From Girardia tigrina (lineage: Eukaryota): a stretch of 60,965 nt of DNA. This document shows, piece by piece, positions 1 through 31,972 of this stretch; positions within the stretch are counted from its first letter, which is position 1, and each line of letters starts with the position of its first letter. Below the pieces are notes generated by a model that made no database searches, had not been told where the DNA came from, and worked only from the letters and a program-made list of their open reading frames with translations. The stretch lies in contig MQRK01067526.1 in the NCBI GenBank assembly GCA_001938485.1, positions 1 through 60,965 of the forward strand, written 5' to 3'. Position numbers and translations under genes: made by a program.

Positions 1-112
1 TAAAATATCAATTTTCCATCTGGGTGGGAGAAACACATTTCCAAATACTAAACTCAACATACAAAATTCAACAAACCAATTTCAACATACCAAATTTAAA
101 ATATTCCTCACA
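1..112 (-). repeat. Copy 1 of unnamed TGTGAGGAAT-module dispersed family (runs off the window edge)
   Basis: Reverse complement is nearly identical to 9691-9801 (TGTGAGGAATATTTTAAATT...TGTGTTTCTCCCAC(A/C)CAGATGGAAAATTGATATTTTA). Confidence 0.85.
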
Positions 113-423
113 AGTACTATGATCTTCGATAATGTTGGATTCTAGATTAGAAATCACAATTTCACACAAAATGTTAATAATAAAAATTATACACATATTT
201 AAACAAATGTTTCGTTAATTATATAAATCATTTGGCCAAAAATGATTTATTAAATTTTCTTTAAATCATATTTCTATTTTTGTTAAAATTTATTAAACTT
301 TCAATATGTTAAATTTATCTCTGCAGTTTTCTGCTTTTGTTTAAAAATATTTAAATTATTTTCAATTTTATTTAGAAGAACCTTTTTATTTTCAAAATCA
401 TTTCGTAAAAAATATATAACTAA

Positions 424-825
424 TTTTTATTTGAAAACATGTTTCGCCACTTTTTTTACAGAACTAATTTTTAATTTCTTTCAAAATAATTATGAATTTT
501 ATCCCGTTCATTGTTTTTATTATTTATTTTAAAATTACTTTTCCTAAATATTTTCCTATTAAAATATATTGATTTTAATTAATTTAAACTTTTAATTTGT
601 TTTACATAATTATTTAATTTTTGTTTGTTTTTAAAAAATTCTTTAACTTTTTTTAGTTTTGTATTTAATTAGAAAGTTATTGTTTATATAGAAAGATGAC
701 CATTACATCACAGTGTGTTACGTCAAAAATGGTCATCTTTCTATATAAACAATAACTTTCTAATTAAATACCGAACTGAAGATGCCACAAAAGTGGCGAA
801 ACATGTTTTCCAATAAAAATTTTTT
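424..825. mobile_element. Penelope-like 3' end (pLTR) fold-back remnant with no coding sequence
   Basis: Perfect 44-bp inverted repeat 661-704/728-771. The sequence matches the 3' UTR of the GIY-YIG-bearing PLE at 56100-56205. A partial antisense hammerhead at about 433-454 is separated from the left arm by about 200 bp of AT-rich DNA. Confidence 0.8.
773..810 (+). ncRNA. Minimal type-I hammerhead ribozyme (PLE-associated)
   Basis: GAA-CTGAAGA-T-GCCAC-AAAA-GTGGC-GAAA-CATG-T-T-TTC: CUGANGA and GAAA cores, 5-bp stem II, palindromic stem III (ACATGT), GUU triplet, 3-bp stem I. Confidence 0.8.
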
Positions 826-1434
826 TTAGTTTTATATACTTTATGCATTTTTTATATTTTACGTAATTATATAATTTTTGTTAAAATTAAAAAATTTCTG
901 GTGTGTTAAAAAGTCGCAAAACAATTTGAAAATAAAAAAAACAATTTTTATTAAATACGTAAAATACGTAATTTAATAAATATTTTTCTTATTATAGTTT
1001 TACAGTATTTATATTTTTTTAAATTGAAAATCGTGTTCATTTAAAAATAAATTTTCATGGAAAAGATTCAATTATTTATTTGTAGAAAAAAATCCCTCAT
1101 TTGACATTGAGAAATTACAGAGTCTGTGAAATAATTAATGCTCTTCAATAAGAAAATATTATTTTGCTAAAAATTCACCGCAAAAGTCCGCCAATTTAAC
1201 TTACAAAATAACAAAACGAAATTGGAAAATTATTTCCAAAATAATTTTTTGTTTTCTTTTTGATTTTTACATGAAAATTTTGAAAGAAAATATTTTCTAA
1301 ATTTTGTGTTTTATCAATAATAATTCCACTTGTAGAGAAAATGATGTAAAATTTAAATCAGAGAAACATGAAAACAGGAATGAAAATTTAAGATTTAAAT
1401 ATAAAATAATACAATAAGACAAATACATGCTTTT

Positions 1435-1871
1435 AATTTTTACGAAAATATCAAATATATAATTGTCTTTCTTAACAACGTCAATATGAGTTTTGCAACA
1501 TTTATTATTATCACAAGCGCATTCACTATTTGACATATCTCTTGATCGATATTTTTCTGAGTTTAAACTAATTATTTTCAATAAATGAAGATCTGTTAAT
1601 AAAAATTATTAATTATAAAGAATTTAATTGGTTGAAATTAAATCTAAACATTTTTAAAAAAAAAGAACATATTAAATTAATATTTTAAAATTTTAATTTA
1701 CATTAAAAAATAAATAATACATTCCAAAATTATTTTAAATCTTTTTACTTTAAAATTAAATTAAATTATTTTTAATTAGTAGGAATCAAAGAAAATATCA
1801 ATCATCCATCTGTGCAGGAGAGGAACAATCCGAATCAACATACAACATGCACAATATCAACACACAATTCA
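1435..1871 (-). repeat. Copy 2 of TGTGAGGAAT-module family (5' boundary missing)
   Basis: Colinear with 25260-25630 (inverted), 3640-3920 and 31640-31950. ATG at 1536 gives MSNSECACDNNKCCKTHIDVVK. Confidence 0.8.
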
Positions 1872-2334
1872 CAGTCTTGCCAAAATACGATTTACATCCC
1901 AAATAGATTTTTTAACAGTGAACATTAAAATAATTAAAATTTACATGAAAAAAATTAACAATCAAAAGTGCTCAAATTTACAAGATTACACAACACCACC
2001 GAAATGCAAATTTTTCTGGCTTTCATATCCGGGCCATATCGTCTTTGGACAACAACCATCATATTTGACCCTAACGAGGACCGCCGTTTTATCAATGAAA
2101 TTCACAACTCCATTTTAGCCAAACCATTTGTATTTTGAATATTTTGATATTTTTTATGCTGTATAATACAATGCATTTTGTTTTAGATTAGTAACTCTCC
2201 TACACATGTAGCTGATTGATATGTTTTAATTAGTTGATCAAAAGTAATGCAATAAGATCAAAGTTTAAATGTAAAATAATTTAAAATTTTATTACTTAAA
2301 ATTTTATAATCTAAAATTTTGTAATTTTAATTAA

Positions 2335-2997
2335 CCGCCCTACCCATACGAACGTACGCGATACGGCCGCTATATTATCGCCCTAACGCAACAAACCGTA
2401 TCCCGTACGTTCAGGCACAAAAAAACTATATTCGAAGCCCACAAAACGTTCGTGATACGTTCGCTCGTGATTTTATCGTCTTTCCCCCTATAAATTAAAA
2501 TAAAAATGTAAAATGTTTGGTTTTATTTGTATTTTTTATTGTAATAAAATAAAAATGTTTATTTTTATGTATTTTTTAGTTAATAAAATAAAAATAAGTG
2601 CTAAAATATATGATTTTTATTATGAATAAAAAATCGCTTTGTAGCAGTGAGGTCTATATCCAGTATCCTCTCACCCCGAAAAGTCATAATTCACGAGCCT
2701 TTTGAACACCAACAATATTTTTTTATGAATTGAGATTATGTTGATAGATATATTACATTCAATACAATATATATTAGCTAAAATATTCAATAGATTATTA
2801 TTACAAGAATTATTCGGCGACATCTTATGTTGAGAACCTCTGACTTGCAAAGGATACAAAAAAGGTTCATAAATGAGTCTATTGAGTAAAAGTTTTTTCT
2901 GGTATATTGTAAACAAGTATTATTATTTCAAAATATAATGAAAAAAACCCGATGTTTTTTTACCTACTTTTTGAATAATAACCCAGACGTAGGGCGG
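2335..2997. mobile_element. piggyBac-like MITE / non-autonomous element
   Basis: TTAA|CCGCCCTAC ... GTAGGGCGG|TTAA: 9-bp TIR with TTAA target duplication on both sides. No transposase ORF. Confidence 0.7.
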
Positions 2998-3539
2998 TTA
3001 AAAATTTAATTTAATTTAAATTTATTGTAATAGTTTTTAAACAATTTAATTTTTTAAATTGTATTGACAACATCAACATGATTTTTCGAACATTTATTAA
3101 TGTGAGAAGTGGTTGCAACATCAATATCTGAATTCATTTTTTAAAACCAAAATTTATTAATATAACAACAATTCACATATATAAACAAATTTTTCTGTTA
3201 ATTTAATTATCTCACCACAAATTAATCTATTAAATTCTTTTCGATTCAATTTTTAAAATCTTGCAAATTTAATAAATACATTTCACATTAAAACTAAAAA
3301 TTTATTTTAAAATTTATTTAAAATTGTTTCATAACTTATATTAAAATATATAAATTGTTATGACTAAAAATATTTTTATTTGTAAATAAATATTTAATGA
3401 TTTTCTTATCATTTTTAATTATAAAATATTTAATAAGCATATTAACATTAAAATATTTTACCTTTTAAATTTAAAAAAAATAATAAATTATTCTGGCGAG
3501 ATAAAAATTTAATTTAACCCCTCATAATTAAAATCACAA

Positions 3540-3934
3540 ATCATGACAACAAATATTCAAACCACTCTCGCTATTCGACATTTTTCTTGATTAATATATT
3601 TCTGTCCTCCTAGTTCTTATGCAAACAAATGGAAAAAATATTATAATATTAACTAATTATCAAAATATTATTGGTTAAAATTAGATCTATATATTTTTCA
3701 AATTAAATTAAATTTTTATATAACATTTAAAAATTAAAGATTATATTTAAAAATTTAAAAATTACATTTGAAAAATATTTTAAATATTTTTACATTAAAA
3801 TTAAATTAAATTATTTTTAATTAGTAGGAATCAAAGAAAATATCAATCATCCATCTGTGTAGGAGAGGCACAATCCGAATCAACATACGACATGCAAAAT
3901 ATAAAACAACGAACAATTCAGAACATTCCTCACA
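3540..3934 (-). repeat. Copy 3 of TGTGAGGAAT-module family
   Basis: Starts TGTGAGGAATGTTCTG at 3934. ATG at 3581 gives MSNSESGLNICCHDL. Confidence 0.8.
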
Positions 3935-4109
3935 AATTGAATGTTTTTTTTGTTTTTTTATTTATTGTTTAGAAATATATATTTATATTATTCTTTTATT
4001 TTATATAAATACTTATATTATTCATCAAAGAAGGCACCTAAATTATTAACACATATTTGCTATTTGAGCGGAAGCTTGTTGAGGCCATTTTAATTAAAAT
4101 TTAGTGGAC

Positions 4110-5429: not shown

Positions 5430-6489
5430 CAGATGTAGAAACGTGATTTTCGCAAAATTTACTTATACGAGTTCAAGCTAGAGTGTAATGCAGCTCAAAC
5501 CGCTCGAAACATCAACGAGGTTTGAGACAAGGGAAGTGAAACCGAATATATGGTGTAGCACTGGTATTACATTTTTTGCTCTGACAATACCAGCCTGGAA
5601 AATGAGCCTCATAGTATCCGCTCATCGATCATTGACAACGACAAATTGAAGAAGCTGGTGGAAGCCGATCCTCGCAGGACTGTTTAAGCACTCGTAGAAG
5701 AGCTTCACGTTGATCCATTAACTTTCACTCGGCACTTGAAGCAAATAAGAAAGTCGAAAAAGCTCAATAAATGAGTGCTTCTTTTGAGGTGTCGTCCGTG
5801 CTTCTTCTGAACTACAAGAAAACCCGTTTTCTATCGGATTGTGACGTGTAATGAGAAGTGAATTCTCTTCGACAATTGGTGACTTTGCGCGCAAAAATAT
5901 GATCGCTATGAGGCTCCTCGCCACTTTCCGAAACCGAAACTCCACTAAAAGAAGGTTATGGTGACTATTTGGTGGTCTTCAACCAGTCTCATCCATCCCA
6001 GCTTTCTGAATACGGGTGAAACGATCACCGCAGAGAAGTACTGTAAACAAATTGACAAAATGCATCATGAGCTCCGATTCATGTAACCGAGATTGGTCAA
6101 TATGAAGGGAACAATTCTCCTCCACGACAACGCCCGGTCAAATATCGCAAAACCGACTCTACGAAAGCTAAACGAATTGGGCTGCGAAACTCTGCCTCAT
6201 TCATCCTACTCACCAGACCTCTCACCCACCGACTTCCATTTTTAAAGCAACTGGACGATTTGCTCCAGGAAAAATGCTTCAAAAACCAAGACGACGCTAA
6301 AGACGCCTTTAACGCTTTCATCGCACTAAGAACACAAGAGTTTTACTCTAGGGGCATCAATAAATGTGTTTATCGTTGATGTATTGACTTTGATGGTTTT
6401 TTTTTCGATTAATAAAGTTTATTCTGTGCTGAGTTACATTTGTTTAGAGTATAGGTTCAAAAACCTGCATTGCTTTTACAACAACCCAA
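5430..6489 (+). mobile_element. Degenerate mariner element
   Basis: KVMVTIWWS, GTILLHDNAR and LPHSSYSPDLSPTDFH motifs. 3' end ...ACAACAACCCAA|TA resembles a mariner TIR. Confidence 0.9.
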
Positions 6490-6699
6490 TATTTATATTC
6501 AATTGATATGAATATGCAACCAGCTTAATTTATCCTTGGGTCCTCGTTAAAAACTTTGAATATGTCTTTTGCTAAGTATCAGATTTAAACAAATAATGCG
6601 TCTTTTTATTTCACAACGTACCTAATTCAACGTATGAAATGTATTTTAAATCAAAGAAATTTAAAAATGAAATAAAAATTGGAAATTCTAAAATGTTTA

Positions 6700-8236: not shown

Positions 8237-8441
8237 TGTTCAGGCACTCCGATTAAACAGTTTTTCCCATTTCTGAGATCTTAAAAAGTTTTTTTTGATA
8301 AAATTTTCACATTTTATTGTCATCGAGAATGAGTAAGTGTGCAAAGTTTGAAGAAAATTGATTGAGTATAAAGCCTTCAAAAAGAGGTTTCTAAATTCAA
8401 TGAATACCTATATACCTAGAAAGTAAGTTAATAAAAAGAAT
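8237..8441 (+). repeat. Dispersed non-coding repeat (possibly Helentron/DINE-like)
   Basis: Inverted copy at about 9372-9509 and a third copy at about 15522-15700 plus 16320-16365. Shared ...AAAGTAAGTTAATAAAAAG end. The superfamily is a guess. Confidence 0.7.
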
Positions 8442-9199
8442 GAAAAAAGATTAATATTTATGCTGTTTAAGTTTAATGTTTTAAAGACAAAAATACAATT
8501 TAAAAAATTGTCTTATTGTTGATTACTCATTGAGTTCAAATAATTTAAATGAAAATTGAATCTCCCACAGATATAATTATTGATGTTTTTAAGACTGTAT
8601 CCACTTAAGATTTACAGGAAGATCTAAGATTTAAAATTCAAAATTTGAAATTAAAGTAATTAACCTTAAATCCGAAGTTGCAACGGTACTCTTTCATTAT
8701 TTTTTATATCAATTTTTGAATATATTAATAGTTTTTATTTTATTCCTAAAAAAATTTATGCCGTAATTTTTAACCTTTTACTTAAAACCTGGATTTTTAA
8801 ATCTGGGGAAATTAAAATTCAAGGAAAAGTTGAAAGGAACATATGGATATCGTCTTCTCTAATACGAAAAGCGATAAAATAACATTAATATTTATAGAAA
8901 AGAAAAAGCAAATATTTGTTCATATATTATATAAATAATAGAGTATACAATTTTGATTGTATGAGAATTATGGTTGATAAGAGGAAAAAAATAATAAATA
9001 ATAACAATAAATAATAATTCTTGAAAGTCTGAACTGAATATTAAACAGTCTCCAAATATTACTTTATAAAACAATAGCGGTAAATAATAATTTAATTCTT
9101 AATATTAATTGTTGAACTAATTTAATAGTTTTACAATATTTATATGCATTTAAATAATAAATTATAAATTCATTTTAATACACTTGATTTACAGATTTC

Positions 9200-9590
9200 T
9201 CAGGAGCGGAGTGAGAATTGGGTGAATTCCATGTCTGACCGCATTCATGCGGTAATTGTAGCCAAGGGTGGTCAAACTGGCTATTGATTCATAGCAATCT
9301 GTGTAAACACTTTCTAAGTATATCTAAATGTTTTGCTGGTCATTTAGTCAAATAAATATTAATTTTTTTCTTTCTTTTTATTAACTTACTTTCTAGGTAT
9401 ATAGGTATTCATTGAATTTTGAAACCTCTTTTTGAAGGCTTTATGCTCAATCAATTTTCTTCAAACTTTGTACACTTACTTATTTTTGATGTCAATAAAA
9501 TGTGAAAATGTTGTTGTTCATCTTATATTTCTTAAAATTCAGAAAAATTAACAAAATTTAAAATTGGTCTTAAACTTTTAACAAAAACTG
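9200..9590 (+). mobile_element. Tc1-family 3' remnant, interrupted by the 9372-9509 repeat
   Basis: VNSMSDRIHAVIVAKGGQTGY* is a typical Tc1 C-terminus. Ends GGTCTTAAACTTTTAACAAAAACTG|TA. Confidence 0.75.
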
Positions 9591-9690
9591 TATTATAATT
9601 ATATTTAAAACAATAAGAAATACAAAGTATGAATAATTCATTGTTAATTCATTGCTTATCGGCTTGTGTGGGTGCCGAATATTTCATACC

Positions 9691-10240
9691 TGTGAGGAAT
9701 ATTTTAAATTTGTATGTTGAAATTGGTTTGTTTAATTTTGTATGTTGAGTTTAGTATTTGGAAATGTGTTTCTCCCACACAGATGGAAAATTGATATTTT
9801 AGATGTTCACGATAAATAATTATTCGAGTATAATTTAGATTTTAAAGTACAACATAAGATATTTAAAAACATTAAAAATATTAAATCGTTTCAAATTTTC
9901 ATATTAAAATTTAAATAAAATAAATAGTTTTAACTAAGTTTTGAATTAATTAAATGTTCTTTCTTTCCGTAAAATAATTTTTAAATAAAATTAATATGTA
10001 AATAAAATTAATAATAAAACTACAAAATTTGAACTTTAAAAATAAAATCAGAAAATAATGAAAAATTTGTTCGAATAATTGTTTATTAAAAAACATTAAC
10101 AAAAAGTTATCAATTTAGAACGATGTCGAATTACGAGAGTTTTGCTGAGAATTGTCCAAAAGACAATTCTAATTGTGTTGAAAATAAAAGGTCGAAAACC
10201 CATGTTGGTGTTCTTAATAATACCGATGATGTGTTTTGAG
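9691..10240 (+). repeat. Copy 4 of TGTGAGGAAT-module family
   Basis: TGTGAGGAAT at 9691. TTTAG just before ATG 10123, which gives MSNYESFAENCPKDNSNCVENKRSKTHVGVLNN. Confidence 0.8.
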
Positions 10241-11534
10241 CCAGTGTAAGAGAGAGAAATAAGGAAAAACTCGCTCTGGTTGGCTGATCAAGCAGAGCGA
10301 GTACTGGATAGACAAAGAAATTCATTATTTTTGATTTTTTTGAATTATTGATGAATTTTAATTTTTTTGTTAATACTCGATTGATAGTTTTATAAAGTTG
10401 TATTTCTCGATTTGGTGAAGTTTCGTGAATTTCTTTTGGTGATTGAGTTTCTCAATTTTCGAATATTATTGTAAGAAATGAATCTTTCTTTAAATAATTT
10501 TTAAAAGAAAGAGACACTCGATATGTGAAATTTGATTTGAAAGCGATTCAATTTTTATTATGCTCGAATGTTGTTTTATGAGATGAACTTTCGTCGATTG
10601 ATGATTTTAAAAAGACATTTTCAATTTATGAATTATGATTTTTACCGGGCTCTAGCGGTTAAAATTGAAAAATGGTATTTTATTTCTTCTTTTGAGAGAA
10701 ATTCAATCAATTGTTATTTTTGTGATTTTGAAATGATTTTTGAATTAAAAATAAAGATTTATATTTCGTCAATGAATGAATTATGGATTTTAAATGTTAT
10801 TGAATATAAAGATATCTCATCACTCAACGACATTGGAATTGTATAATCAACGCAATTAACAAATAGATGATAGAAAGTTTAAATGAAATTTATTTAAAAA
10901 ATGGGGTCTGTACAATGAGACTGGGCGCTCAGATGATCCACTGAGAACCCAAGCTACCACCATCCGGTTCTCGAAGCAACGTAAGGATCAGTCGGAACAT
11001 TTAAGTTTGACGATATATTTAATCATAAACAAATATTTACAAAAAATGTGTGGAGAGGCAGCATTAAGATTGACCGAACTTTTTACAACTTGAGACATTT
11101 ATATATAATTAAATTAAATTAAATAATTAAATATAAAGTAATTAAAAAAATATTAATAAATAATTAAATCTAATAATTAAATCAACTATTAAAAAAGTAT
11201 AAAATAAATAAATTACTTAATTAAATAGCTTTTGTCACAGTCTAATTGCATTATTTTGTTTATTTTCCCTTATTGATTTTATTTCAAAATTGCAAATCGG
11301 TGAGTTGTAATCACCATATATTTGAAATCTTTAATAAGGGTTTGATTGATGTGTGTAAAAATAAAATGAAAATGTAAAAAAGTGTTCGATGTGTGTGCGA
11401 TATGTTTGCTTGTGAACATTTCTATGCAGATGAGTGTGAAAATGGGGAGATATGATTGGTGTGTGTGCCTTTTGTTTGTGTTTGTATGTAAATGTTTTTT
11501 TTGTAATTGTCACAATTTCACAAATGATTGTGTA

Positions 11535-12085
11535 TGTGAGGAATATTTGAATGTTTGATGTTTTGTGTTTGAATGTGTATGTTGATTTGGAAATGTGTCT
11601 CTCCTACCCATATGGAGGATTAATATTTGAATTCTTATTATCTAAAAATATTTAATGTTTAAATTTATTTTTAATTTCAAATAATTTTAAAATTTTAAAT
11701 CAGTTAATTAATTTTTATAATATTTAATAAATAAATCAAATTAATATTTTTTAAATAATTAATAATCATTTTAATTATTATCCAATAAGTTTTGAGTAAA
11801 TATTTTAATAAAATATTTATTTCCCGATTTGCTAAAAAATAATGAGAATTAATTCATTAATCAATTTCGTTTAGAATGCAAATGTACGAAAGTTTTGACA
11901 AAGACTGTTTTAAGGACAATCAAAATTGTTGTTTAAATAAAAATATAAAAAGTCAAATTGGTGTTCTTAATAGTGTAAAAAATGGAAATCAATTAAATAG
12001 AAAATTTAAAAAAGAAAAAGAATGTTTTTTTTCAAATTCGAAGTTAAAAATAAAACAGAATGAGTTTCAAAAGAATTTGAAATAA
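11535..12085 (+). repeat. Copy 5 of TGTGAGGAAT-module family
   Basis: TGTGAGGAAT at 11535. TTTAG then ATG 11876, giving MQMYESFDKDCFKDNQNCCLNKNIKSQIGVLNS, which aligns without gaps to the copy 4 peptide. Confidence 0.8.
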
Positions 12086-13292: not shown

Positions 13293-14250
13293 CAGTAAAA
13301 TCTTGATTATAATGCGCACTTTATTTCCTGAAAATACCTTTGGAATTTCGGGTGCGCGTTATATACGAGTACTCAATATTTTAACGAAAATATACTCATA
13401 AAACTTTCGCAATTCAATTGAAACATAAAAGTATCTCAAAGAAATATAAGCTTGTTTGTAATAATTCATAGTTTTAAGTTTTAATGTCCATGTCCTCATT
13501 ACCGATTCCTCTGAAAATAAGCCCATGAGCGTATTTAAGTATATAAAAAAACACGATTTTCCGAAAGATATCCCAGGGATTATTTACGGAAATATCCGAT
13601 ACTATTCATGAAACGCAATTCACGCAAATCGTTAGAAACTATAGCATCCGAATTATGTTCTGGGTCGATGTCAATATAATGGATGCTATTCTTATTTTCA
13701 AGGTCGACGTCTTTCAAGATCATCGTCTTCAGTTCAATCCAGCGCATTAGAAATAGAACATTTCAAAAAACCGTTCTTTGCAATTCATACAACATGCAAT
13801 TCATCCCAAGTATCATCGATCCTATGGATAATTTGATGATGGAAGAAAATAAAAGAAATGTCATTACCACAACATCTTAAGATCAGGTATTGTACGTACC
13901 TGAGGAGTAGGCGCTCTCATGTTTCCATGTTTGGTGTGTGTTTGGCGCCTTCTACAAACCATGTATTCCACTTAGCTTTAAGAGCATCCTTCATTGGCTT
14001 GTTCACTGACAAATCCAATGGCTGCAATAGTTTCGTCATTCCTCCAGGGATTATAGCTATATCAGTATTTTCGGCACGCAGCTCATCTGCTATAAATGGC
14101 ATGCAATGACAGCGGAATGAATCTAATACCAGAAGTGATCGCCTTTTTAGGAATCCACCACTATGATTTGATCACACTGTCTTTATCCAATCTTTAAAAA
14201 TTTTTTCATTCATCAACCCATTCTGTTGTGCACGAACATAGACACCTGAT
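13293..14250 (-). mobile_element. pogo/Tigger-type transposon 3' remnant (DDE_1)
   Basis: LVLDSF and IIPGGMTKLLQPLDLSVNKPMKDALKAKWNTW motifs. TA|CAGTAAAATCTTGATTATAATGCGCAC terminus at 13293. Confidence 0.85.
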
Positions 14251-14581
14251 GACCATACATACGCCCCCGGCAGTCTTTTTTAATCATTATTTCAGTTTCG
14301 AAAACCAACAAAATAAAACCGAAGATCTATTTTATTATTCCATGCAACAATATACAAGCATAAGCCTGCTTTAAGCACTCTAATTTTTTCAAAGTAAACT
14401 TGTCGGTCATCCTCAACACCCATTAAAGAGCATCAAAGATATACACGACGTCGAAGGACAAGATAGCTATCAATCGTAGATTTCAAACCATCTTTTTCCT
14501 CAATTTCAACTACTAGCTTTTTAACTGCAACAACTTTAATATACGCTATTGGATCGTTATATAATCGTTATAATACGTTAT

Positions 14582-15116
14582 ATGATCGCGAGTCAAAGGG
14601 CTTTACGAAACCCCACGGCGAAATTAATGTAAAGGTTCATTTCGGTGAGCTGTGATGTGACCTTGTCCAGTTTTCTTGGAAGAGTGCAACATCAATCCGT
14701 CTGAAGGTGTTCGCATCTGGGCGGAGTTTGAGCGATCGTGTAAAGACCCGAAAGATGGTTAACTATGCTTGTTCAGGTTGAAGTCAGAGGAAACTCTGAT
14801 GGAGGACCACCGCGGTTCTGACGTGCAAATCGATCGTCGGACATGAGTCATGGGCGAAAGACTAATCGAACCATCTAATAGCTGGTTCCTTCCGAAGTTT
14901 CCCTCAGGATAGCTGGCGTTTATGATTCCGTAGTTGAACCTGGTAAAGCGAATGATTAGAAGTATTGGGGGCGAAATGCTCTCAAATTATTCTCAAACTT
15001 TAAATGGGTTCGAAGTGGGCCTCTTTTTAATATTTTTGTTGGAGGTGTACATCGAATACAAATGCCTAGTGGGCCATTTTTGGTAAGCCCAACTGGCGAT
15101 GTGGGATGAACCAAAC
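14582..15116 (+). rRNA. Isolated 28S (LSU) rRNA fragment, pseudogene
   Basis: Conserved eukaryotic LSU blocks GACCCGAAAGATGG, CTGACGTGCAAATCGATCGTC, GGCGAAAGACTAATCGAACCATCT, CCGAAGTTTCCCTCAGGATAGCTGG, GGTAAAGCGAATGATTAGA and GTGGGCCATTTTTGGTAAGC. No flanking rDNA, and some normally conserved positions differ. Confidence 0.95.
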
Positions 15117-15714
15117 ATTAGATCCTTGGGCAGTGTTTGCCTCTTAAAAACTTACACACAAAGAAGGAGAGAAAAAGTGCGTTAAAAGGTGGTCTTACCA
15201 ATAACAGGATGCATTTTAGTTCCAAAAAAATCTAGTAAATCAAAAAAAATTATATCCATTCTTTATGCAGACAAAACTCTACTTTGTCCACAAAATTTTA
15301 ATTAAAAAAATATTTTCAAAGAAAGCACTAAAAAATTCAAAAGTTCTGTTGACCAAGCAGAGTTCCGCCCGCATTAAGCATAGATATAAAAAATATTTTT
15401 TTGATTTACTGTTTAAACTTTAAATCGCTTTACTGAACTTTATTTATTTTTCAATGTATTTTTTTGTGAAATATAAACTTTTTATAATTTATAATTTATT
15501 TATAAACTTTTCATGCTAAAATTGTTCACGAACTCCCATGGGACCGTTTTTTACCAATTTTGAGACCATAAAAAGTTTTTTTTGATCAAATTTTCAAATT
15601 ATCAATAATTGTCATCGAGAATACGTAAGTGTACAATATTTGGAGAAAAATGATTGAGTAAAATGTCTTCAAAAATATGTTTCTAAATTCCATGGATATA
15701 TATATATATATATA

Positions 15715-16848: not shown

Positions 16849-17637
16849 TTAATCCGGCTTAAACTGACTAATAATATCATCCAACTGCAGTTGCAGTTGT
16901 TTCTGAATCATTTCATACCAGGCTATATTGTCATCGTAATGTTTCTGCAAGAGATTCTGTCGATTTTCTACGGATTTCTGAATCGCAACACATCGCTTTT
17001 TAGCAGCAATGACAGATTCTCGAAGCACCTTCACTTCTTTCGTTAATCTACCGATCTCCGTCTCGTGTTCGATCTTGGAGGGCTCCGTTAACTCGAACTT
17101 GTGAACACCGTATTTCATGAAGTTATTAGCGATACACTGGTACGAATTGATCGTCATATCCGATTCGTTTTTTACTCTCAATAACAAAAGTCCTCTTTCA
17201 GTGCATTGTATCGTCAGTTGACGAATCAGTTCATCGAAAAGATCCGAATATATTTGTCGTCTAATCGGACAAACAACTTGGTTTTTCGTTTTCCGTTGTC
17301 TTTCTAATGCTTCCACGCAATTTGTCAACAGAACCACATCTGCTCTCGTAGAAGGTATCGGCGACACGTATTGCGTATAGACAGTGTCGTTGAGTTCATA
17401 ACGAATCGGAGGAAGAATGACATTGATGAGAGCTGTCGTTTCTTTTAATGTGAGATAATTTTCGAAATCTTTAAACGTTGCAATAACTTTTCGTTGGGGA
17501 ATATTATCTGGCCGATCGATACAGCGGCCTTTCACTCTCGATTTATCGAGTTCGACAAATTTATTTTCGTCGTATAAAATAGGTTTTTCGTATTGGATTA
17601 ATATCTTTTCTGGATGAATGAGATGAAATTCATCCAT
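16849..17637 (-). CDS. DNALI1: Axonemal dynein light intermediate chain p28/DNALI1-like protein, intronless and divergent
   Basis: Uninterrupted ORF, first ATG at 17637, 262 aa. Motifs ILPP, VSPIPSTRADVV and VCPIRRQIYSDLFDELIRQLTIQCTERGLLLLRVKNE, followed by a coiled-coil tail. AATAAA at 16789-16794 (minus strand). Confidence 0.9.
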   Translation of the reverse strand: MDEFHLIHPEKILIQYEKPILYDENKFVELDKSRVKGRCIDRPDNIPQRKVIATFKDFENYLTLKETTALINVILPPIRYELNDTVYTQYVSPIPSTRADVVLLTNCVEALERQRKTKNQVVCPIRRQIYSDLFDELIRQLTIQCTERGLLLLRVKNESDMTINSYQCIANNFMKYGVHKFELTEPSKIEHETEIGRLTKEVKVLRESVIAAKKRCVAIQKSVENRQNLLQKHYDDNIAWYEMIQKQLQLQLDDIISQFKPD

Positions 17638-17706
17638 GACGAAATTCAATCAATAAATTAAATAAAACTCAATAATCATTATATTAAATTATAGTAATAA
17701 GAATAA

Positions 17707-18228: not shown

Positions 18229-18670
18229 CTACCAATTTACAAAATACCTTATAAAAATTGAATCACTTTTATATATCCTTTTATTTTTCAGTAAATCATC
18301 CAAAGAAATAAATTTGGGATTTCCAAAACCAATGCTAATTGTTTGGATGCTAATAGTTTACTAAAAACATTCTGTTTGCGTATCTCTGTATAATAGTGGA
18401 ATATTTTATCACCATAAATATTTTCATAAAACTTATTGACTAAACCAAGTCTAATTTTCATTTTCATCGGCCAAGATAAATTATCATTGTGGTCTCCTTT
18501 CATTGTGACAGAAGATAGATAAATGGGTAGTTTTACCTAAACCAGATCCATTTGGATGAATCGTTAAAAACAATTCGTACCCATTTAAATGTGAATAGAA
18601 CGGCTTACAAATTGAATAAGTCTATCTTCCTTCCTGTAAGCTTTTATTAATTTATTACTGAAATTTCATT
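18229..18670 (-). pseudogene. TRAF-type MATH (TRAF-C) domain fragment with frameshifts
   Basis: Across frames: KPFYSHLNGYELFLTIHPNGSGLGKTTHLSIFC / TMKGDHNDNLSWPMKMKIRLGLVN / SIGFGNPKFISLDDLLKNKRIYKSDSIFIRYFVNW*. This matches the TRAF-C pattern PFY..GY....YPNG.G.G..THLS.F...MKG..D..L.WP and GFG.P.FI...YI.DD.IFI. Confidence 0.85.
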
Positions 18671-18782: not shown

Positions 18783-18990
18783 TAAGAATGAATGTCCTAC
18801 TATATCAAATATGTTTATTTTGAATTCCTTATTTCATTTTTGTCACTCCGTAATTGATACCTATTGTCGCTAAATATTTTTCAACAAATCGTTTATCACA
18901 GTATCTTCTAATGAGACAACTCCTTCCGACAGCCTGATTGCAAATAGTGATTATTTTGATTCTGAGAAGTTTCAAATTATCTTTTATCAT
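18783..18990 (-). pseudogene. DNAJC27: RJL/DNAJC27-type Rab-like GTPase N-terminal fragment
   Basis: RIKIITICNQAVGRSCLIRRYCDKRFVEKYLATIGINYGVTK, then after a frameshift near 18830 EFKINIFDIVGHSF. The RJL signature is KRYCEKRFVSKYLATIGIDYG...KVNIFDMAGHPFF. The P-loop is altered and the fragment stops after G3. Confidence 0.85.
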
Positions 18991-19415
18991 TGATTTTGTT
19001 TTTATTAATGAATTAAAACTATTTTTCATTATCAATTCGATTTTAAATTGTTATTTAAATTTAGTTTTAATAGCAACCGCGAATTTGAATTTTCCAATGA
19101 CGATAACGAATTACATTATTCAGACAAAATCGAACAAGATCTTTTTTTCTTTTTTTGATGACAAAACATTGTTCCTTATTTTTTGTGACATTGAAAAATT
19201 GTGATAAAATCATATGCATTTTCACATCCCACTACTGAAAGACCAATCAAATTTCATTTTCTCTTTTTACAAGCATGATTAAACATAGAAAACACATTCA
19301 TTGGTCTATTCAAATTATTAATCATACATACATGCACATACATTATTCATTTTAATAGGGCATTTTGTTATTTGCTAAGGTCCTTAAATATATAATATTT
19401 GTCTAAAAAGTGAAG

Positions 19416-20760
19416 TGATGTGAAGTCTCTCCAATGTATGTGACGGAACATCCATTACATGTATATTGGTATAATGAGATCCGAATACAATCCTAATGGC
19501 GTTTGAGATTTATTGGCAGTTTTTCAATATTCTTGTTTTATATTCATGTTTTCAATTTTCTGGGAACGGGATATTACTTTTAAACTTATTGCATTATCTA
19601 ACACTTTCAAAATAGAATTTATAAATATTTTAAACCCTTATGAATATGGTACAGTTAACACATAATCAATTCCCAAACTTTTATAATTAGTGTTGCAAAA
19701 TTGCTCTTGATCTTGAACATCTAAAATTTTGGTATTATTTTTTTTGTCAATTAATTTATCAATAGTTTCCTTTTTTAATTTCTCCACTATCGATTTTGAA
19801 TATCCATTATCATATAATGATTTGTTTAATTATTACATCCTTTGTTATGTTATTACATCCTTTATGTGTAGATGAAAGAGCCCATGAGCGAAAAATAAGA
19901 CCTTTAATCATATTTCAACGATATTTGGGTTCACAGAAACTGATCGGTGTTGTATACAACCCCTTGTCAGTTTTCTTTCTGTAAATCTCCGTCTAATAAC
20001 GTCCGTTTTTTCTCTCAATTAATAAATCAAGAAAGGACAATTTCTTATTTCGATAGTGGAGAAATTAACAAAGGAAACTATTGATAAATTAATTGACAAA
20101 AATTATAGTAAAATTTTAAATGTTCAAGATCAAGAGCAATCTGGCAACACTAATGAAAAAAGTTTGGGAATTGGTTATGTGTTAATTTTACCATATTCAT
20201 AGAGGTTTAAAATATTTATAAATTCCATTTTGAAAGTGTTAGATAATGCAATAAGTTTAAAAGTAATATCCCGTACCCAGAAAATTGAAAACATGTTCGC
20301 CAATAAATCTCAAACGCCATTAGGATTGTGTTCGGATCTCATTATACCAATATACATGTAATGGATGTACCGTCACATACATTGGAGAGACTTCACATCA
20401 TCTCTGTAAGAGAATCCAGGAACACAGTCGCAATGAAGATGGAAGTAACATTGCAGGACATAGTAGACATTGTAAAGGAGATATAACTTCACAACAATTT
20501 AAAATTCTGTGCACTCAATTTAAAAATTATTGGGATAGAGTGACACGTTATATATAAGATCTTTGGATCCTAAAATTAACGTTCAAACTGCACTCTCTAC
20601 AACTTTGTTGAGAGTTTTTAAATGATGTACTGATAACATATTGATTGCATAATCATTGACTGTACTTTATAAGTAAATTTCGTTTGAAAAATCATTTGTT
20701 CTGACGATGACGGTTAAACCGTCGAAATTAATAAACTTTGATTGGCTTAAGAACTTTTTA
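19416..20760 (+). mobile_element. 5'-truncated Penelope-like retroelement with an inverted 5' segment
   Basis: Plus strand 20050-20625: linker and GIY-YIG (LIIPIYM/YTCNGCTVTYIGETSHHLCKRIQEH). Minus strand 20049-19416: RT C-terminus (LSFLDLLIERK, IYRKKTDKGLY). Inverted arms 19416-19793/20050-20400. Confidence 0.9.
20698..20736 (+). ncRNA. Minimal type-I hammerhead ribozyme
   Basis: GTT-CTGACGA-T-GACGGT-TAA-ACCGTC-GAAA-TTAA-T-A-AAC: 6-bp stem II, palindromic stem III (ATTAAT), AUA triplet. Lies about 75 nt after the PLE stop. Confidence 0.8.
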
Positions 20761-23570: not shown

Positions 23571-23619
23571 TTATAAATTACACAATGATAAGAGAAACAT
23601 AGCATTTATATAAGGGTGA

Positions 23620-24780
23620 ATAAATTGTATATTATATGTATTTTATACATTATTTATTCTTAGGAACATTTTGATATATAATTCACATTGTAGAGCCTTT
23701 TCTACAAAAGTCTAATTCTTTTATAAATATGTTAAAATGTCAAAAAAAGCATGGAGAAAAAAGCAATTCGATTTTTTATGAAATTATAATTCGTCTTATA
23801 ACAGCGGAAACTTATATAAACATTTTTGGTAGCTACAGCCGAGATTCCACGACTGAAAGAACACGATTCCGATTGTATGCTAAATTCCACTCCGGCAATA
23901 CGCACCTTAAAGACGAATCGCGCTACGGAGTCCGTAGTACGGACGCCCAACAACCATTGATAAACGAGCTACAAGCTGTTTCATTAAAAGGGATTCGACC
24001 GAAACTCACGCAGAATGGCCGCTAAACTCCAAACTTCACATACAACTATTAATCGGAACCTTCAGAACCTCGCACGATTTCAACGAAATTTAAAAAAAAT
24101 CGCCGAATTAATGACTGTTCTTGGCTATTGCGCAAATTTACGCTGTGATAGATAAAAACAGATTTTGACATGTGATTATAAGTTTTTTGTCTACGATAAA
24201 TGAAGAGGATAACCCCGTCAACTGAGAAAAAGTACGCCTCGAAGTTATCCACATCAAAAAGGTGATGTGAACGTTTTGAGGACGGCAGCGGGGTCTATTC
24301 ACTCGTAAAAATTTTTGCATGCTAAAACCATCACTTTTGAAGTTTTACTGTACCCAATTAGACCGTGTTCACGCTGCTCCATCAAAACGGCTCGTGTTTG
24401 TTTTCAACAAAACAGCCTAAACCTCATATTTCACGCAGGATACTTCAAAAACTTGAAGGATTGGATTGGAATCTTCTGAAGCACCCAAAATATGGACCAG
24501 ACGATGCCCCATCTGATTATCATCTTTTTAGGTCGCTGGAAATTCTCCTCCGAAGACTCATCTTCATTGAAGATGAGCACATTGAAAGAAGCCCTTCAAA
24601 ACTTTTTACATGCGAACAACAGCGTTTTACGGCTGCAGAATTTTACCGTTGTAGCCTCATCGGAGAAAAATAATAAAAAATAAAGGTGATGCATTTATGA
24701 AAAGGATCGCTTGTTATTTTAAAAATTATGTTTTTAATAAAGTAGTAATTTGCTAACAAAATTTTCGCTCAAACTTGATA
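23620..24780 (+). mobile_element. Degenerate mariner element
   Basis: AKFHSGNTHLKDESRYG (HTH/linker) and LDWNLLKHPKYGPDDAPSDYHLFRSL. Confidence 0.85.
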
Positions 24781-25243: not shown

Positions 25244-25630
25244 TGTGAGGAATGTTTTGAATTGTGTGTTGATATTGTGCATGTTGTATGTTCATTTGGA
25301 TTGCGCCTCTCCTACACAGATGGATGATTGGTATTTTCTTTGATTCTTCTAATTAAAAATAATTTAATTTAATTTTAAAGTAAAAAGATTTAAAATAATT
25401 TTGGAATGTATTATTTATTTTTTAATGTAATTTAAAATTTTAATATATTAATTTGATATGTTCTTTTTTTAAAAATGTTTAGATTTAATTTCAACCAATT
25501 AAATTCTTTATAATTAATAATTTTTATTAACAGATTTTCACTTATTAGAAAAAAATTAGTATGAACTCAGAAATATTGATTAAGAAAAATGCCAAATAGT
25601 TAATGCGCTTGTAATATTAATAAATGTTTG
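25244..25630 (+). repeat. Copy 6 of TGTGAGGAAT-module family
   Basis: TGTGAGGAAT at 25244. Long near-identity to inverted 1500-1871. ATG at 25589 gives MPNS*CACNINKC. Confidence 0.85.
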
Positions 25631-26539
25631 TTGTATCTCAGTAGAGGGTTTTCGTAAATCATAATCAGATTCTGATAATTTTGGTTCGAATGACTGTTCG
25701 GACGATGATTCCGCTTCACCCCTCAATTTTTGTAGCCAATTAAAACTTGTAAAGACTTCGTTTTCCTTGAAGCTTAAATGATATTCTTTGATATTCGATT
25801 GATTGATTGGGTGTTGAGAATCAATTGGATGTGAAATCGGATCGAATTGATTTATAGAAAAATCTTCACTGGTTAAGACTGCTGGTTGTATCGCGCCGCT
25901 ACTAGATCAAGTTAGATCGTCACTGATTTTAGTTTCATTATTAACTGGAATCACATCTATCACACGAATATAGTGTGGAGAACTGTTGGTGAGTTTCTTG
26001 GCACTGAATATCACAATTACATAATTTCTCCGTCGGCGAATCAAAGCGACAATTCGAAACAAGCTCTTCCACAATTTTGTCGCCAAATATTGTTCGATTG
26101 CCGACTTCAAATCGCACATTGTGCTCGCTTCCAATAGAAATTCGTTGATCGTTCTCCGACGCGGTTTATCGATTTGATTTGATTGAGATTTGATTCTGTT
26201 GTCAGGAATGATCGATGAAGACGCTTTGATTTCATTCGAGTTATTTCTCGATAATTTCCAATCGGATTTATCGAACTCGATTCAACGAGCGAATCATCAC
26301 TGACTAAGTCGACAATAAATTTACTTAATTTTGAATCGATTTTCTTGACCAAATGACCTTCTTTAATATCGAAATGTGCGATTACCATTGGAGAGTTTCT
26401 TTCGATCTTCTCGATTTGGTCGATTTCTTGATGGGCTCTACTCAAATTCAAAATGAATATCTGCACGCCCATATCGAATTTGTTGCTGAAATCTATGACC
26501 TTTTGAGCATGATTTTTTAAATTTAATTCAAAATTTGAA

Positions 26540-27000
26540 TCATCATCACTATTTATTGTTTTGGCCAATTCATAAAAAGTTGGTAAATCATTTATATTCA
26601 TTATGAAATCAGGATTCTCAAGTGATATAAGATCATTATCTAAAGGTACTCCATAAAATTTTAATTTAGAGAGATTTTTTAATTTTGATTAGAGACCTTT
26701 TCCATCTATGTATTTATTACGACAAGACAAACAGTCCGGTACAAATATCAAATGATATTCATCACAGAATTTCTTATTGATCACAGATTCGGCAATATCA
26801 ATCATTTTCATTGATGCTTTGATAAACATTATTATCGATTTATATTTATTCGTTTTCTTGCAGATCTGAATCCGTAATAGAGGCTAATGATTTAATTAAT
26901 TTCGCTTTGAAGACAATTTTTAATGATCCAATATTCGTAAACGGAAAATCAATTTTTTCGTTTTTATTTAAACTTATTGGAATAAAATACTAATAAGCGT
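26540..27000 (-). pseudogene. VPS33: Vps33-like (Sec1/Munc18 family) N-terminal fragment
   Basis: In frame with and upstream of ORF 26107-26601: IIMFIKASMKMIDIAESVINKKFCDEYHLIFVPDCLSCRNKYIDGKGL*SKLKNLSKLKFYGVPLDNDLISLENPDF...DLPTFYELAK. This resembles Vps33 IIFFVRP.L..MD.IA...FHILFVP...L...G....LIPFD.DLLSME. In-frame TAA at 26689-26691. Confidence 0.7.
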
Positions 27001-27950: not shown

Positions 27951-28040
27951 TTATGGTTAGGGTTAGACTTAAAGTTAAGGTTAGGATTATGGTTAGGGTT
28001 AGAGCTAAGATTAAGGTTAGGGTTATGATTTAGAGTTAAG
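27951..28040 (+). repeat. Degenerate interstitial TTAGGG-like hexamer array
   Basis: 13 in-phase hexamers (TTATGG, TTAGGG, TTAGAC, TTAAAG, TTAAGG...), three of them perfect TTAGGG. Confidence 0.8.
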
Positions 28041-28384
28041 GATTATTTAATGATAAAAAATAATTCATTTTTTTAGTACGCAATTGTCTTTCTGCAATTG
28101 GCATGGAACCAAAAAGTACCATAAAGTATATATATAAACTAAAATTTAAAGTCAAAATACAAATGTAGTTATAAAAAATTTCGAGATTTTTAAAAATTTC
28201 TAGTTACAATGAAAATATCTCTGTAAAGAACGCAAACTAGATAATAAAATTTATTATATAAAATATTGATGGGGGTTTGCTAACCAATTAAACTTGGCAA
28301 TTTTCCCCTTTTATATTAAGGCAATATTATATAATATGCCCCAGGGTCAGTTGATGCAATTGAAATTGACCTTGCAATTAAACA

Positions 28385-28500
28385 TTCCGGTGATGTCATG
28401 ACATATGAAATCACCGGACTTTGAACTCTAGTGATGTCATGAGATTTGACATCATTGAAGTTCAATATTACTGAATGTGGTGAGGAATGACATCACTACA
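28385..28500. repeat. Cluster of short GTGATGTCAT/ATGACATCAC inverted repeats
   Basis: TCCGGTGAT...ATCACCGGA and GTGATGTCA...TGACATCA hairpins in tandem. Confidence 0.55.
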
Positions 28501-30059
28501 ATCTCATTTCTTTTATGTGTCAAATTAAAAGAATATGTTTCCAATTGTCCTAGAAACAATTTTACCACAGCAATAATCTTCAAGCAAGTTGAAATATTGG
28601 TGCAATTCTTTTCCAGTGTCAGTCCTTCATAATCAAGATAAATCTAAAAAAACAAGTATAAAAACTGTTATTTTTTATGATAGTAATTATAAAGTTAAAA
28701 TGAAAGAAAATTAGACATAAGGTTATCACGACGTAATATCTTTTTGTGGTTTATCTTGGTTTAGAGTTTCATTTATTTCATTTTCAGAAACTGGTTTTAC
28801 TAATTTTAAATAAATTATAAAATATTAATAATTAATTCATCCTAATAAGCCTCTGATTCGATTAAAATATTTCTATGACAACGTTTTTGATTTATAGAAT
28901 TTTAATTTAAATAAATGGATACAAGAGTTCTTTAAATTATTTTGTTTACAAAATGTTGTGTAACCCCCCAACATTTTATTTAAAAAAATAATTTTAATTA
29001 AAAAAATAATGAAAAGGCATAAAAAAATTTAATTCAATGCATATCTAATATACCATTTTAAATTTTTTCAATAAAAACACATTTTATGGACTTTTGTTTG
29101 GGTTCTTTTTAAATTTATCAATAATAACTACCTATAATATCTATTGATTAATTCAGTTTCATTATATGAATTAATTTTTGTCACTATTTTCCTCACAGAA
29201 CAGCTGCGCACAAACCTTATCGACAACGCCTCATTGCACGTTCTCTCCGTCATGGTCACTGACTGTGGAAGGATCAAGAGCGTGCTCCATAGCGTAGTCA
29301 ACGATATACAAACACTGATTCTGATCCTCTTTGAAAATGAAAGTGTCAGAGAATTATAAAACCTTCTCCGAAAATTTATTTTTGATCTCTTGCTCAAATT
29401 CAAATTCAATATGAATTCAAGACCAAAATTAATAATTGTCTAATTATTAATGTTAATGCGGTCTATACAAAATAGAGGAAAATCAGTTATCATCACTTAT
29501 ACCAGCACAACACTTGAGAATGTTTTCCGGATCAACACTTTAATATTACATTGAATAGATATAGATAACATTCGGGCTGATTTTGGATGTGATATTTTTA
29601 GAATTAAAGTTTTAAGATAAATTGATGGTCTAAGTTCTGTTAAGGATATTGGGCTTGGCTAAATATAACTGGTAGGAAAGATTAAACTGTGAGCCAGTAA
29701 ATATCTTGATTATGAATTGCGATTGATAATTGCTGTTGTTGAATTGCCCAACAAATTGTCCGACATTTTTATCACAAGAAATGTATAAAAATCCACTGTA
29801 GACAGTTTTATAATTCCATGGTATTAATTTATTATATATATATAGTTGCCTCATAAGTTTTGTCGCACACATATATCTATGTTAACTGCAGATATCCTTG
29901 CATCACATAAATAATTCTTATATATTTGCAATCCCTAATAAAATGTGAATTAGATAAAATATAATTTGCGATCTACTTATGTCCAATAATTTTTATTTTA
30001 TGTTCTAAATGAATTTTTGTTTTAATAAAATAATAGCATTTTCGTAAATTTCGCATATT

Positions 30060-30557
30060 TTCATCATCCTAATGGATTTTAATCGCTCTGATATTCGTAA
30101 ATTAATTTACTATTGCTGGAAAAAGGATTAACATTCTCACAGATAACTGACGAAATTAACACGGCTCTTGGAGTTGGAACACTGTCAAAGAGAACATGTG
30201 AAAGGTGAGTTTCCAATTTTAGTGAAAACAACTTTAACACAGACGATCAAGTCCGCGAAGGGCGCCCCTCTCTTGACATAGACAAGAAGATAATCTAGTT
30301 TCTGACTGAAGACAAGTGTGCAACAACGAGGAACATTGCAGAGGGAATTGATCAGGATAAAACCACGGTGTGCCAGAAAGAATTATGCCGGTGTCAACGA
30401 TATCAACGATGATCTTCTACATTGGTGTGACAAGAAACCGTGTGTTTTTTTTCCAAAATGGGATACGCAACCTCCCTGGATACTGACTAGATATTTTTTT
30501 GTATTTTTGTATTTTTTTAGTGTTTTTTTTGAGACAAAACTTATGAGACAACCCCTT
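30060..30557 (+). mobile_element. Internally deleted mariner remnant
   Basis: MDFNRSDIRKLIYYCWK and DDQVREGRPSLD. Ends AAACTTATGAGACAACCCCT. Confidence 0.75.
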
Positions 30558-31594
30558 ATATAATTGCTTGAAAAAACTTAAATGATCGCTTTAAAATTTC
30601 TTATTTTCAAAACTAATAAAAGAAAGATATTTAAAATTTTCGGAAGAAGCATGTCCATCCACATTGAAATAACCTTTTTTTACAAATTTCTTTAACGACT
30701 AAGCTTAGTAAAATACCAAAAGAGAGAATAAGACAATACTGAATTAGATAAGACAAAAATATTATTTATTTATATTATTTGAGAGAAAGGAAACCTTCTT
30801 TACAATTGTCATTCTTAGGATAAAATGACAAAAATTCAAAAGAAAGTAAGAAACATTTTTAAATATCACAAAAAATTAACGAAAATATTTTAAAATTTTA
30901 TTTGTCTTTTCTTTAATGCAAAATCTTTTTGTTCGAAGAATGAAATTCTAATTTATTTTATCAAAGATATTGAAAAGAAAATAACAAAATATACAAATAT
31001 TAGTAAAATTTGATCCAAAAACTTTTAACAGATTTCTGTCAATCGTGTCGAAAAAAAAACAATTAATCAAAATTTGACGGTTGAACTTTTTGAGAATGTT
31101 TCTTGAATTTGTTCCTCGACGATTCTCATCACAAAAATGACCAAAACCGTTTTAATTTTTGAAAAATTTGAATTTTCCTGACACTCATTTATGATTTATT
31201 ATCAATATATAAATATATAAATATAAGAATTATTGAATACCGAATTCCGTTGTGAAACTCAATTATAACTTATTGTCAATTATTTGGACAAAGATTTATG
31301 AATCATTTTATTAGTTTTATCATTTGTCTTGTTTGGGAAGATTCCTCATCAACTTAATTTATCAGTAATTTTAGCCCAACCGCCATAGTTTGTTGAAGAA
31401 TTATTGAAGAAAAACAAATTATATTATTTTTATATTATTTTATATTATATTTATTATATTGTTATAACTATCTGTTTCATTTTTTTAGATTTATGATTTA
31501 TCAAACAATTCATTAATAAATAATATAATAATATTATATTCATACAAACATATATTATTGTAAATAGAATGCATTATCAACTAGTGCTATCGAA

Positions 31595-31972
31595 AGTTTG
31601 CCAACAACACACACTATTTAACATAAATAAATTTTTCTTGATCAATATATTTCTGAATTCATACTAATTTTTTTAATAAATGAAAAAGTTTATTAATAAT
31701 TATTAATAATAAAGATTCTAATTGGTTAAAATTAAATCTAAACATTTTATAAAAAGTACCAATTAAATTAATATATTAAATTATAAATTACATTAAAAAT
31801 TTAATAATACATTCGAAAATTATTTTAAATCTTTTTACTTTAAAATTAAATTATTTTTATTAGTAGGAATCAAAGAAAATACCAATCATCCATCTTGGTA
31901 GGAGAGACACAATCCGAATCAACGTACAACATGCACAAAATAAAACAACAAACAATACAAACATTCCTCACA
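31595..31972 (-). repeat. Copy 7 of TGTGAGGAAT-module family
   Basis: TGTGAGGAATG at 31972. ATG at 31624 gives MLNSVCC. Confidence 0.8.

Follow-up and report, generated by a model that had tools for sequence, protein, structure and literature searches.

The stretch of Girardia tigrina DNA analysed here, contig MQRK01067526.1 of assembly GCA_001938485.1 (60,965 nt in full, hereafter the window), carries seven related repeat copies within its first 32 kb. These copies are very probably solo long terminal repeats (LTRs) of one LTR retrotransposon lineage, which comprises several subfamilies and is most likely of the Ty3/Gypsy type. As judged by sequence comparison with database proteins, the ATG shared by the copies is the predicted Gag start codon, located within the 3′ end of the LTR. 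An earlier note on this DNA had offered two readings, either an LTR-like element with a TG start and a spliced leader region or the 5′ part of an expanded lineage-specific gene family. The LTR-like element with a TG start is borne out by the boundaries, the target site duplications (TSDs) and the Gag match reported below.

Boundaries and subfamilies of the repeat copies

The window has a GC content of 28.5% and is rich in transposon debris (mariner, pogo-type DDE and GIY-YIG); for Schmidtea, an AT content of >70% is given (PMC11410931), and with its TRAF-MATH debris, TTAGGG-like repeats and 28S features the window would suit a triclad flatworm. An exact match search placed TGTGAGGAAT at six positions (112-, 3934-, 9691+, 11535+, 25244+ and 31972-), where the earlier note had it, against 0.097 matches expected from base composition, and the DNA upstream of the six is unrelated from copy to copy. 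The seventh copy, previously taken to be clipped, is instead complete, as it starts with TGTGA at 1873-, has a 12-nt internal deletion and possesses a TSD of its own. The 5′ terminus is TG in all seven copies, and a conserved module of ~100 nt was, as reported before, present in each of them. The core of this module also occurs at 2196+ with three mismatches; a match at 34815+, likewise with three mismatches, was discarded as chance. Beyond the seven copies, two fragments were recognised, at 2172-2332+ and at 40768-, the latter being the sole match retained from a permissive 3′-end pattern whose matches were mostly noise.

Self-comparison of the window showed that the copies share homologous blocks, the longest being ~375 nt. 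In six copies, pairwise identity across the initial ~340 nt is 73-95% of aligned columns, a figure inflated by the AT content. The two subfamilies described earlier are visible, one formed by 112- and 9691+ (96.6% identical) and the other by 1873-, 25244+ and 31972- (89-95% identical), but 11535+ and 3934- are further variants beyond these two groups. The seven copies amount to 3,102 nt, or 5.1% of the window.

The 3′ boundary was located from the point at which similarity of the window to P0001, a database Gag protein described below, stops, and was thus fixed independently of the TSDs. Both the 3′ boundary and the TSD, whose definition had been suggested as a check, were found for four of the seven copies, which are complete LTRs of 404, 438, 529 and 873 nt. 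The 3′ terminus of these reads AATA in three and AAGA in one, with the canonical CA in none; a search for canonical TG...CA ends with a TSD gave chance 4-mer matches only, the true ends being TA or GA. The terminal 10-mers of the LTRs form imperfect inverted repeats (4-6 of 10 positions). Perfect 5-bp TSDs, each different, surround all four copies that retain a 3′ end, and the joint chance of this, calculated from base composition, is 1.9e-12. Given that the TSDs differ and that copies occur in both orientations, the copies represent independent insertions and not a tandem array. Their crowding into 32 kb would most simply reflect a region rich in transposable elements (TEs) and under low selection.

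Each of the seven 5-mers directly upstream of an LTR start has a purine at its centre and A or T in second place, a post hoc observation that is not significant after multiple testing. The 873-nt variant includes ~470 extra nt with two ATG-led segments (3137-3581 -), which may represent an insertion, a partial duplication or an intron.

Probable solo state of the LTRs

A purine tract corresponding to a polypurine tract (PPT) was found upstream of none of the seven LTR starts (7-11 purines in the preceding 18 nt), and TGG does not directly follow any of five LTR 3′ ends. When ten Gags were compared with the window by tblastn, LTR tails were the only matches at meaningful E-values, and no Gag body was detected. 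Likewise, Pfam analysis of 139 stop-to-stop open reading frames (ORFs; all but four of those of at least 55 aa within 1-36000, together with one of 49 aa) gave no match in or next to the copies. Neither a Gag body nor a Pol, primer binding site (PBS) or PPT belonging to the family was detected in the window, and the lack of a PPT, TGG or Gag body at the copies is as expected for solo LTRs.

By the usual life cycle of LTR elements, every copy would have integrated independently, with the integrase producing the TSD, and recombination between the two LTRs would then have deleted the internal region. Published definitions of solo LTRs include this origin by LTR-LTR recombination (bioRxiv 10.1101/137141; PMC7175516). 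The sharp TGTGAGGAAT edge would correspond to the U3 integrase attachment end and the ~100-nt module to the start of U3, probably a promoter or enhancer.

The copies could also be considered as facing terminal inverted repeats of a DNA transposon. Ginger-type DNA transposons have TGT ends, as do the copies, which moreover lie on both strands, with 25244+ and 31972- facing inward. However, no TSD is common to any inward-facing pair, and every complete copy is enclosed by a TSD of its own, which brackets just one unit of ~0.4-0.9 kb. These single-unit TSDs refute such an arrangement, the probability of which is practically nil.

A decayed, GC-rich (43%) retroelement lies at ~32100-35540 (-), just upstream of 31972-, with protease-, reverse transcriptase-, RNase H- and integrase-like remnants recognisable by eye and no Pfam match. 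It was rejected as the parent of the solo LTRs, having no LTR in common with them and no Gag similarity.

Predicted Gag start codon within the LTR

An alignment of four peptides from the window was used as a profile against longer proteins, and P0001 (370 aa) was the single match among 194 candidates. The first 32 residues of P0001 are nearly the same as the 11535+ peptide, and the remainder is a Gag with two CCHC knuckles. P0002-P0005 share 59-75% identity with P0001, and in further Gag searches 355 of the 50%-representative proteins reached E<=0.001.

The similarity between the copies and these intact database Gags ends with the LTR, and every LTR subfamily pairs with a different Gag. The 11535+ leader is identical to the P0001 N-terminus at 30/32 residues and at 1/18 past the LTR end; the corresponding figures are 25/32 and 0/18 for 9691+ compared with P0002, and 19/22 and 0/28 for 1873- compared with P0006. 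The 25244+ leader agrees with P0006 at 10/22 residues up to the LTR break, and the second ATG segment of 3934- (from 3137), which runs for 25 codons plus 1 nt to the LTR end, matches P0006 residues 11-22 at 9/12. The distance from the ATG to the LTR end is 3n+1 in all four complete LTRs (67, 76, 97 and 97 nt, with the second ATG taken for 3934-), although the leaders differ in length (22, 25, 32 and 32 codons); the reading frame is uninterrupted up to the LTR end, and the indels span multiples of three nt.

The ATG offsets (353, 432, 341, 345 and 348 nt from the boundary) and peptide starts given in the earlier note were reproduced. The motif K(T/S)(H/Q)(V/I)(G/D)V, ascribed there to three copies, was found, and a variant, KNHVDV, is present in a fourth (3934-, behind ATG 3137). 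The ORFs had been judged decayed; they are instead the first 22-32 codons of Gag, cut at the LTR end on loss of the internal region, and they look decayed because the frames run on into the host flank, the open stretches being 79, 69 and 38 codons.

The shared ATG, the related Cys-containing peptides and the AG just before the ATG are also what an expanded host gene family, seen in its 5′ part, or a non-autonomous element carrying a spliced leader would provide. The AG is indeed present, but it is a single homologous position and not independent evidence. The module had been read as an intron, yet its GT is bases 2-3 of the element and the 'exon' would be unrelated host flank; no conserved splice donor occurs in the module. 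Folding of the module is not above that of shuffles in 5/5 modules (z +0.6 to +2.0), which answers the suggestion of RNA structure there in the negative, and Rfam gave no match at the module. Given that the TSDs enclose the unit and that the peptides are Gag N-termini whose similarity stops at the TSD, both forms of this explanation are refuted and considered very improbable. Assignment to the end of a known TE, named in the earlier note as an outcome that would speak against its reading, was obtained at class level (LTR retrotransposon).

The N-M-A-T junction

In each of P0001-P0006, an extension of 22-49 aa ending in N stands ahead of MAT, and the residues following the LTR-encoded part are N-M-A-T in 6/6 of these own-family Gags. 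As N-M-A-T follows an LTR end at 3n+1, the terminal A of the LTR must begin the M codon. The bases after the LTR would then be TG-GCN-ACN, i.e. the TGG opening of the PBS, the M-A-T junction back-translating to TGGCNAC. In an intact element, transcription would begin upstream of the ATG in the LTR, and Gag would be translated from within the LTR via its terminus (AA-Y-A) and the PBS (TG-GCN-ACN), giving the conserved N-M-A-T. A TA terminus in place of CA would be tolerated, as AAT and AAC both encode Asn.

The junction was counted in 51 of P0001-P0068, those of 300-420 aa being kept and 17 dropped. A junction N-M-[ASV]-[TSFPA] preceded by an upstream in-frame ATG extension (5-49 residues) is present in 37/51 of these Gag-sized relatives, and outside the own family the same N-M-[ASV]-x junction is present in 31/45. 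The others either begin at MA[TS] (6/51) or fit neither pattern (8/51). The residue preceding internal MA[TS] is N in 33/35, and the chance of meeting an ATG before a stop is 0.14-0.23.

A second view accepts the same solo LTRs and places the Gag start at the junction ATG (the M of M-A-T), the upstream ATG being incidental or minor. The leader is without amino-acid constraint, its model is unstructured and of low confidence (local score 34-41 over residues 1-40, see below), and six relatives are predicted to begin at MAT, database starts being predictions; all of this would suit a start at the junction. However, all four complete LTRs keep the frame uninterrupted and in register, their indels spanning multiples of three nt, and the upstream extension in 37/51 relatives compares with 14-23% expected. 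A start at the junction is thus regarded as unlikely, though not negligible. In the preferred reading, with Gag starting in the LTR, it is the frame rather than the sequence of the leader that appears to be conserved, and the leader is predicted to be probably disordered.

Several observations weigh against a solo LTR with an internal Gag start. No full-length element came to light, and the junction of LTR and PBS, like the PBS itself, was deduced from protein. The LTR 3′ end is TA (3/4) or GA (1/4) instead of CA, and in 25244+ and 31972- neither a 3′ end nor a TSD could be recognised. Translation may bypass the upstream ATG, the M of M-A-T being an alternative start candidate at which, as noted, 6/51 relatives are predicted to begin. 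No amino-acid constraint is apparent in the leader, 9691+ and 11535+ showing 14 non-synonymous and 2 synonymous codon differences (changes over the three codon positions 9/10/13). The relatives in the junction count are gene predictions that share descent, so the count is support and not a p-value. The structural model of Gag is weak overall (mean score 49.7), has no Foldseek match at E<=0.001 and does not separate Gypsy from Copia, the top VIA-align match being a Copia capsid.

Two short database proteins, P0062 and P0018 (82 and 126 aa, respectively), begin with the leader and then lose Gag similarity. They might be products of solo LTRs reading into host DNA, or just decayed copies. Slippery sites serve for -1 frameshifts, and a -1 frameshift at a G-N-E motif near the Gag C-terminus would be a guess.

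Superfamily of the Gag protein

All six own-family Gags gave a CCHC knuckle match (PF00098), which exceeded the curated cut-off for three of them. First matches of Gag in the Atlas were clusters of zf-CCHC, Retrotrans_gag and Ty3_capsid (0.95-0.92), those of the Retrotrans_gag/Ty3_capsid type scoring 0.92-0.94, and the own-family Gags had no direct Pfam capsid match. A PDB sequence search with the Gag profile returned nucleocapsid knuckles only (best E 0.0026). The AlphaFold model of P0002 has a mean predicted local distance difference test (pLDDT) score of 49.7, with 60-80 over residues 50-200 and 34-41 over residues 1-40. The top 10 Foldseek matches were all retrotransposon or Arc/PNMA capsids (dArc, Copia, Arc, PNMA2, Ty3), with a best E of 0.017. 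In VIA-align, the top match was a Copia capsid (Z 11.7, root-mean-square deviation (rmsd) 12), and the capsid C-terminal domains (CTDs) of PEG10 (Z 10.2, rmsd about 2.5-2.6, 85 residues) and Ty1' (Z 9.9) were also matched. A predicted capsid fold and CCHC knuckles are thus both found for P0001-P0006.

The own-family Gags are stand-alone proteins of 357-397 aa, and no Gag-Pol fusion of 696-2000 aa was found among 4510 candidates. A distant Gag match (E 9e-7) was obtained in P0124, a full polyprotein with protease, reverse transcriptase, RNase H and integrase in that order (PR-RT-RH-IN). The paired knuckles, the stand-alone Gag, the Atlas labels and the P0124 match make Ty3/Gypsy, rather than Copia, the likely superfamily.

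Comparison with known retrotransposons

Solo LTRs of Ty3/Gypsy elements (Metaviridae) share with the copies the TG start, TSDs of 4-6 bp and sharp ends of similarity (10.1101/137141; PMC7175516). A Gag with capsid fold and CCHC knuckles is a further likeness, and the differences are the TA/GA 3′ end and the presence in the LTR of the Gag start codon with the first 22-32 codons. In yeast Ty1 (Ty1/Copia), the GAG start lies in the 5′ LTR, Gag is not known to carry a CCHC knuckle and the primer is tRNAiMet. The Ty1 PBS lies within the GAG ORF (PMC4974528), and a PBS inside gag, here deduced from protein, is the feature in common; the LTR family differs from Ty1 in its two knuckles and in a junction for which back-translation gives TGGCNAC. 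The two probably belong to different superfamilies, so parallel evolution would be involved.

Paired knuckles and an Arg-type PBS would presumably fit the Mag lineage of Ty3/Gypsy. As listed in Table 1 of PMC3286476, Culex Mag elements mostly have 5-bp TSDs, with 4-bp TSDs in Osvaldo, Mdg1 and Mdg3, and they have a PBS for Ser, Leu or once Arg and one or two ORFs. The 5-bp TSD is thus a likeness that is not unique to Mag, and the Culex Mag LTRs measure 119-304 nt compared with 404-873 nt here (PMC3286476). In plant genomes, TG..TA and TG..GA are among the non-canonical LTR motifs, and 89% of classified cases are Copia (10.1101/137141). In contrast, the present element is from an animal and probably Gypsy, and the change would be silent in the overlapping Gag codon.

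Burro, a giant Gypsy of planarians, is a Gypsy-like LTR element of AT-rich flatworm genomes with 2-3 knuckles in Gag (PMC6431247), as here, but has multi-kb LTRs and one polyprotein of ~4,900 aa, the LTR family here being distinct. The copies are most improbably LTR remnants of a giant Burro-type element, even though the window is AT-rich and flatworm-like and the ORF at 10541-10843+ resembles a BIR by eye, BIR and MATH being motifs that Burro carries (PMC6431247). This BIR has no Pfam or PDB support and the ORF lies beyond the TSD. Moreover, the LTRs here are 0.4-0.9 kb long, whereas two Burro LTRs add ~5 kb; the Gag of 357-397 aa stands alone and is not the N-terminus of a ~4,900-aa ORF, and a search for a fused version of greater length came up empty.

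The literature searches brought up no account of a Gypsy gag with its start in the LTR; this negative is weak, as the repeat catalogues Repbase, Dfam and GyDB were not covered, and the family may well be catalogued. The unusual point is the LTR-encoded Gag start together with the TG...TA ends, which is neat but precedented in an ordinary element class. If true, one short stretch would have three roles, as the integrase end, as the site of tRNA priming and as codons N-M-A-T of Gag, and the overlapping Asn codon would tolerate the change from a CA to a TA terminus. That the PBS and integrase end are read in frame as Gag would be Ty1-like, yet apparently in a Gypsy lineage, a modest twist. An LTR finder restricted to TG...CA would miss TG...TA repeats, gene predictors can call LTR leaders as small Cys-rich orphan genes, and the N-M-A-T signature locates LTR ends from protein alone. 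A solo LTR would also be a ready promoter, start codon and 22-32-codon leader reading into host DNA. It is tentatively proposed, as a possibility and no stronger, that a widespread undescribed Gypsy lineage starts Gag in U5 and that its solo LTRs seed orphan proteins by supplying promoter, start codon and leader. The importance would be greater if such solo LTRs were shown to found translated host ORFs.

Table 1. Copies interpreted as solo LTRs, fragments of the family and predicted Gag starts in the window.
Feature	Position	Strand	Remarks
Complete solo LTR, 529 nt	9691..10219	+	TG...TA; TSD ATACC
Complete solo LTR, 438 nt	11535..11972	+	TG...TA; TSD GTGTA
Complete solo LTR, 404 nt	1470..1873	-	TG...GA; TSD AAGAC; 12-nt deletion just within 5′ end
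Complete solo LTR, long variant, 873 nt	3062..3934	-	TG...TA; TSD CAATT; two ATG-led segments (3581, 3137)
LTR 5′ part	1..112	-	Cut by window edge; 96.6% identical to 9691+
LTR without last ~27 nt	25244..25628	+	ATG 25589, followed by a stop (codon 5); matching TSD not detected
LTR, 3′ end lost or replaced	31612..31972	-	ATG 31624; no family end with a matching TSD detected
Old internal LTR fragment	2172..2332	+	Carries module core (3 mismatches); identity ~69%; neither end present
LTR 3′ fragment	40768..40885	-	ATG 40833; family end GTGTTCTTAATA; deletions between; start coordinate approximate
Predicted LTR-encoded Gag start, ATG, 32 codons + 1 nt	10123..10219	+	P0002 match
Predicted LTR-encoded Gag start, 32 codons + 1 nt	11876..11972	+	P0001 match
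Predicted LTR-encoded Gag start, 22 codons + 1 nt	1470..1536	-	P0006 match

Other features of the window

Three overlapping open frames (193, 124 and 108 aa) without a Pfam match lie at 25580-26688 (-) and adjoin the 25244+ LTR where its 3′ end is broken. A miniature inverted-repeat transposable element (MITE)-like element at 8300-9512, with 149-nt inverted repeats (94%) around 915 nt, ends ~180 nt before the 9691+ LTR, and a relative of it is located at 15459-15706. Remnants of Mariner/Tc1 and pogo-type DDE transposases are present at 38863-39896 (-), 23675-24673 (+), 5900-6400 and 13920-14171 (-).

Rfam analysis over the window identified large subunit ribosomal RNA (LSU rRNA) only, as an isolated eukaryotic fragment (RF02543) at 14577-15171 (+), and no tRNA was found. 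Nine pattern matches to hammerhead-like motifs (CTGANGA-stem-GAAA) were obtained, of which three (776+, 20701+ and 50733-) are convincing by eye, all below Rfam gathering scores. Inverted repeats at 652-821, 19416-20400, 51568-51870 and 56069-56517 were listed with them, and the motifs, lying beside GIY-YIG remnants, would by eye represent Penelope-like elements.

At 16849-17649 (-), surrounded by TE debris, an ORF that is intact and has no introns encodes a divergent dynein light chain of the axonemal type (PF10211, E 1e-44); it could be a retrogene or a testis paralogue. Remnants of TRAF-MATH and Ras-family sequences, both broken, are adjacent at 18291-18536 (-) and 18832-19050 (-), and a degenerate TTAGGG-like tandem repeat occupies an internal position at 27951-28030.

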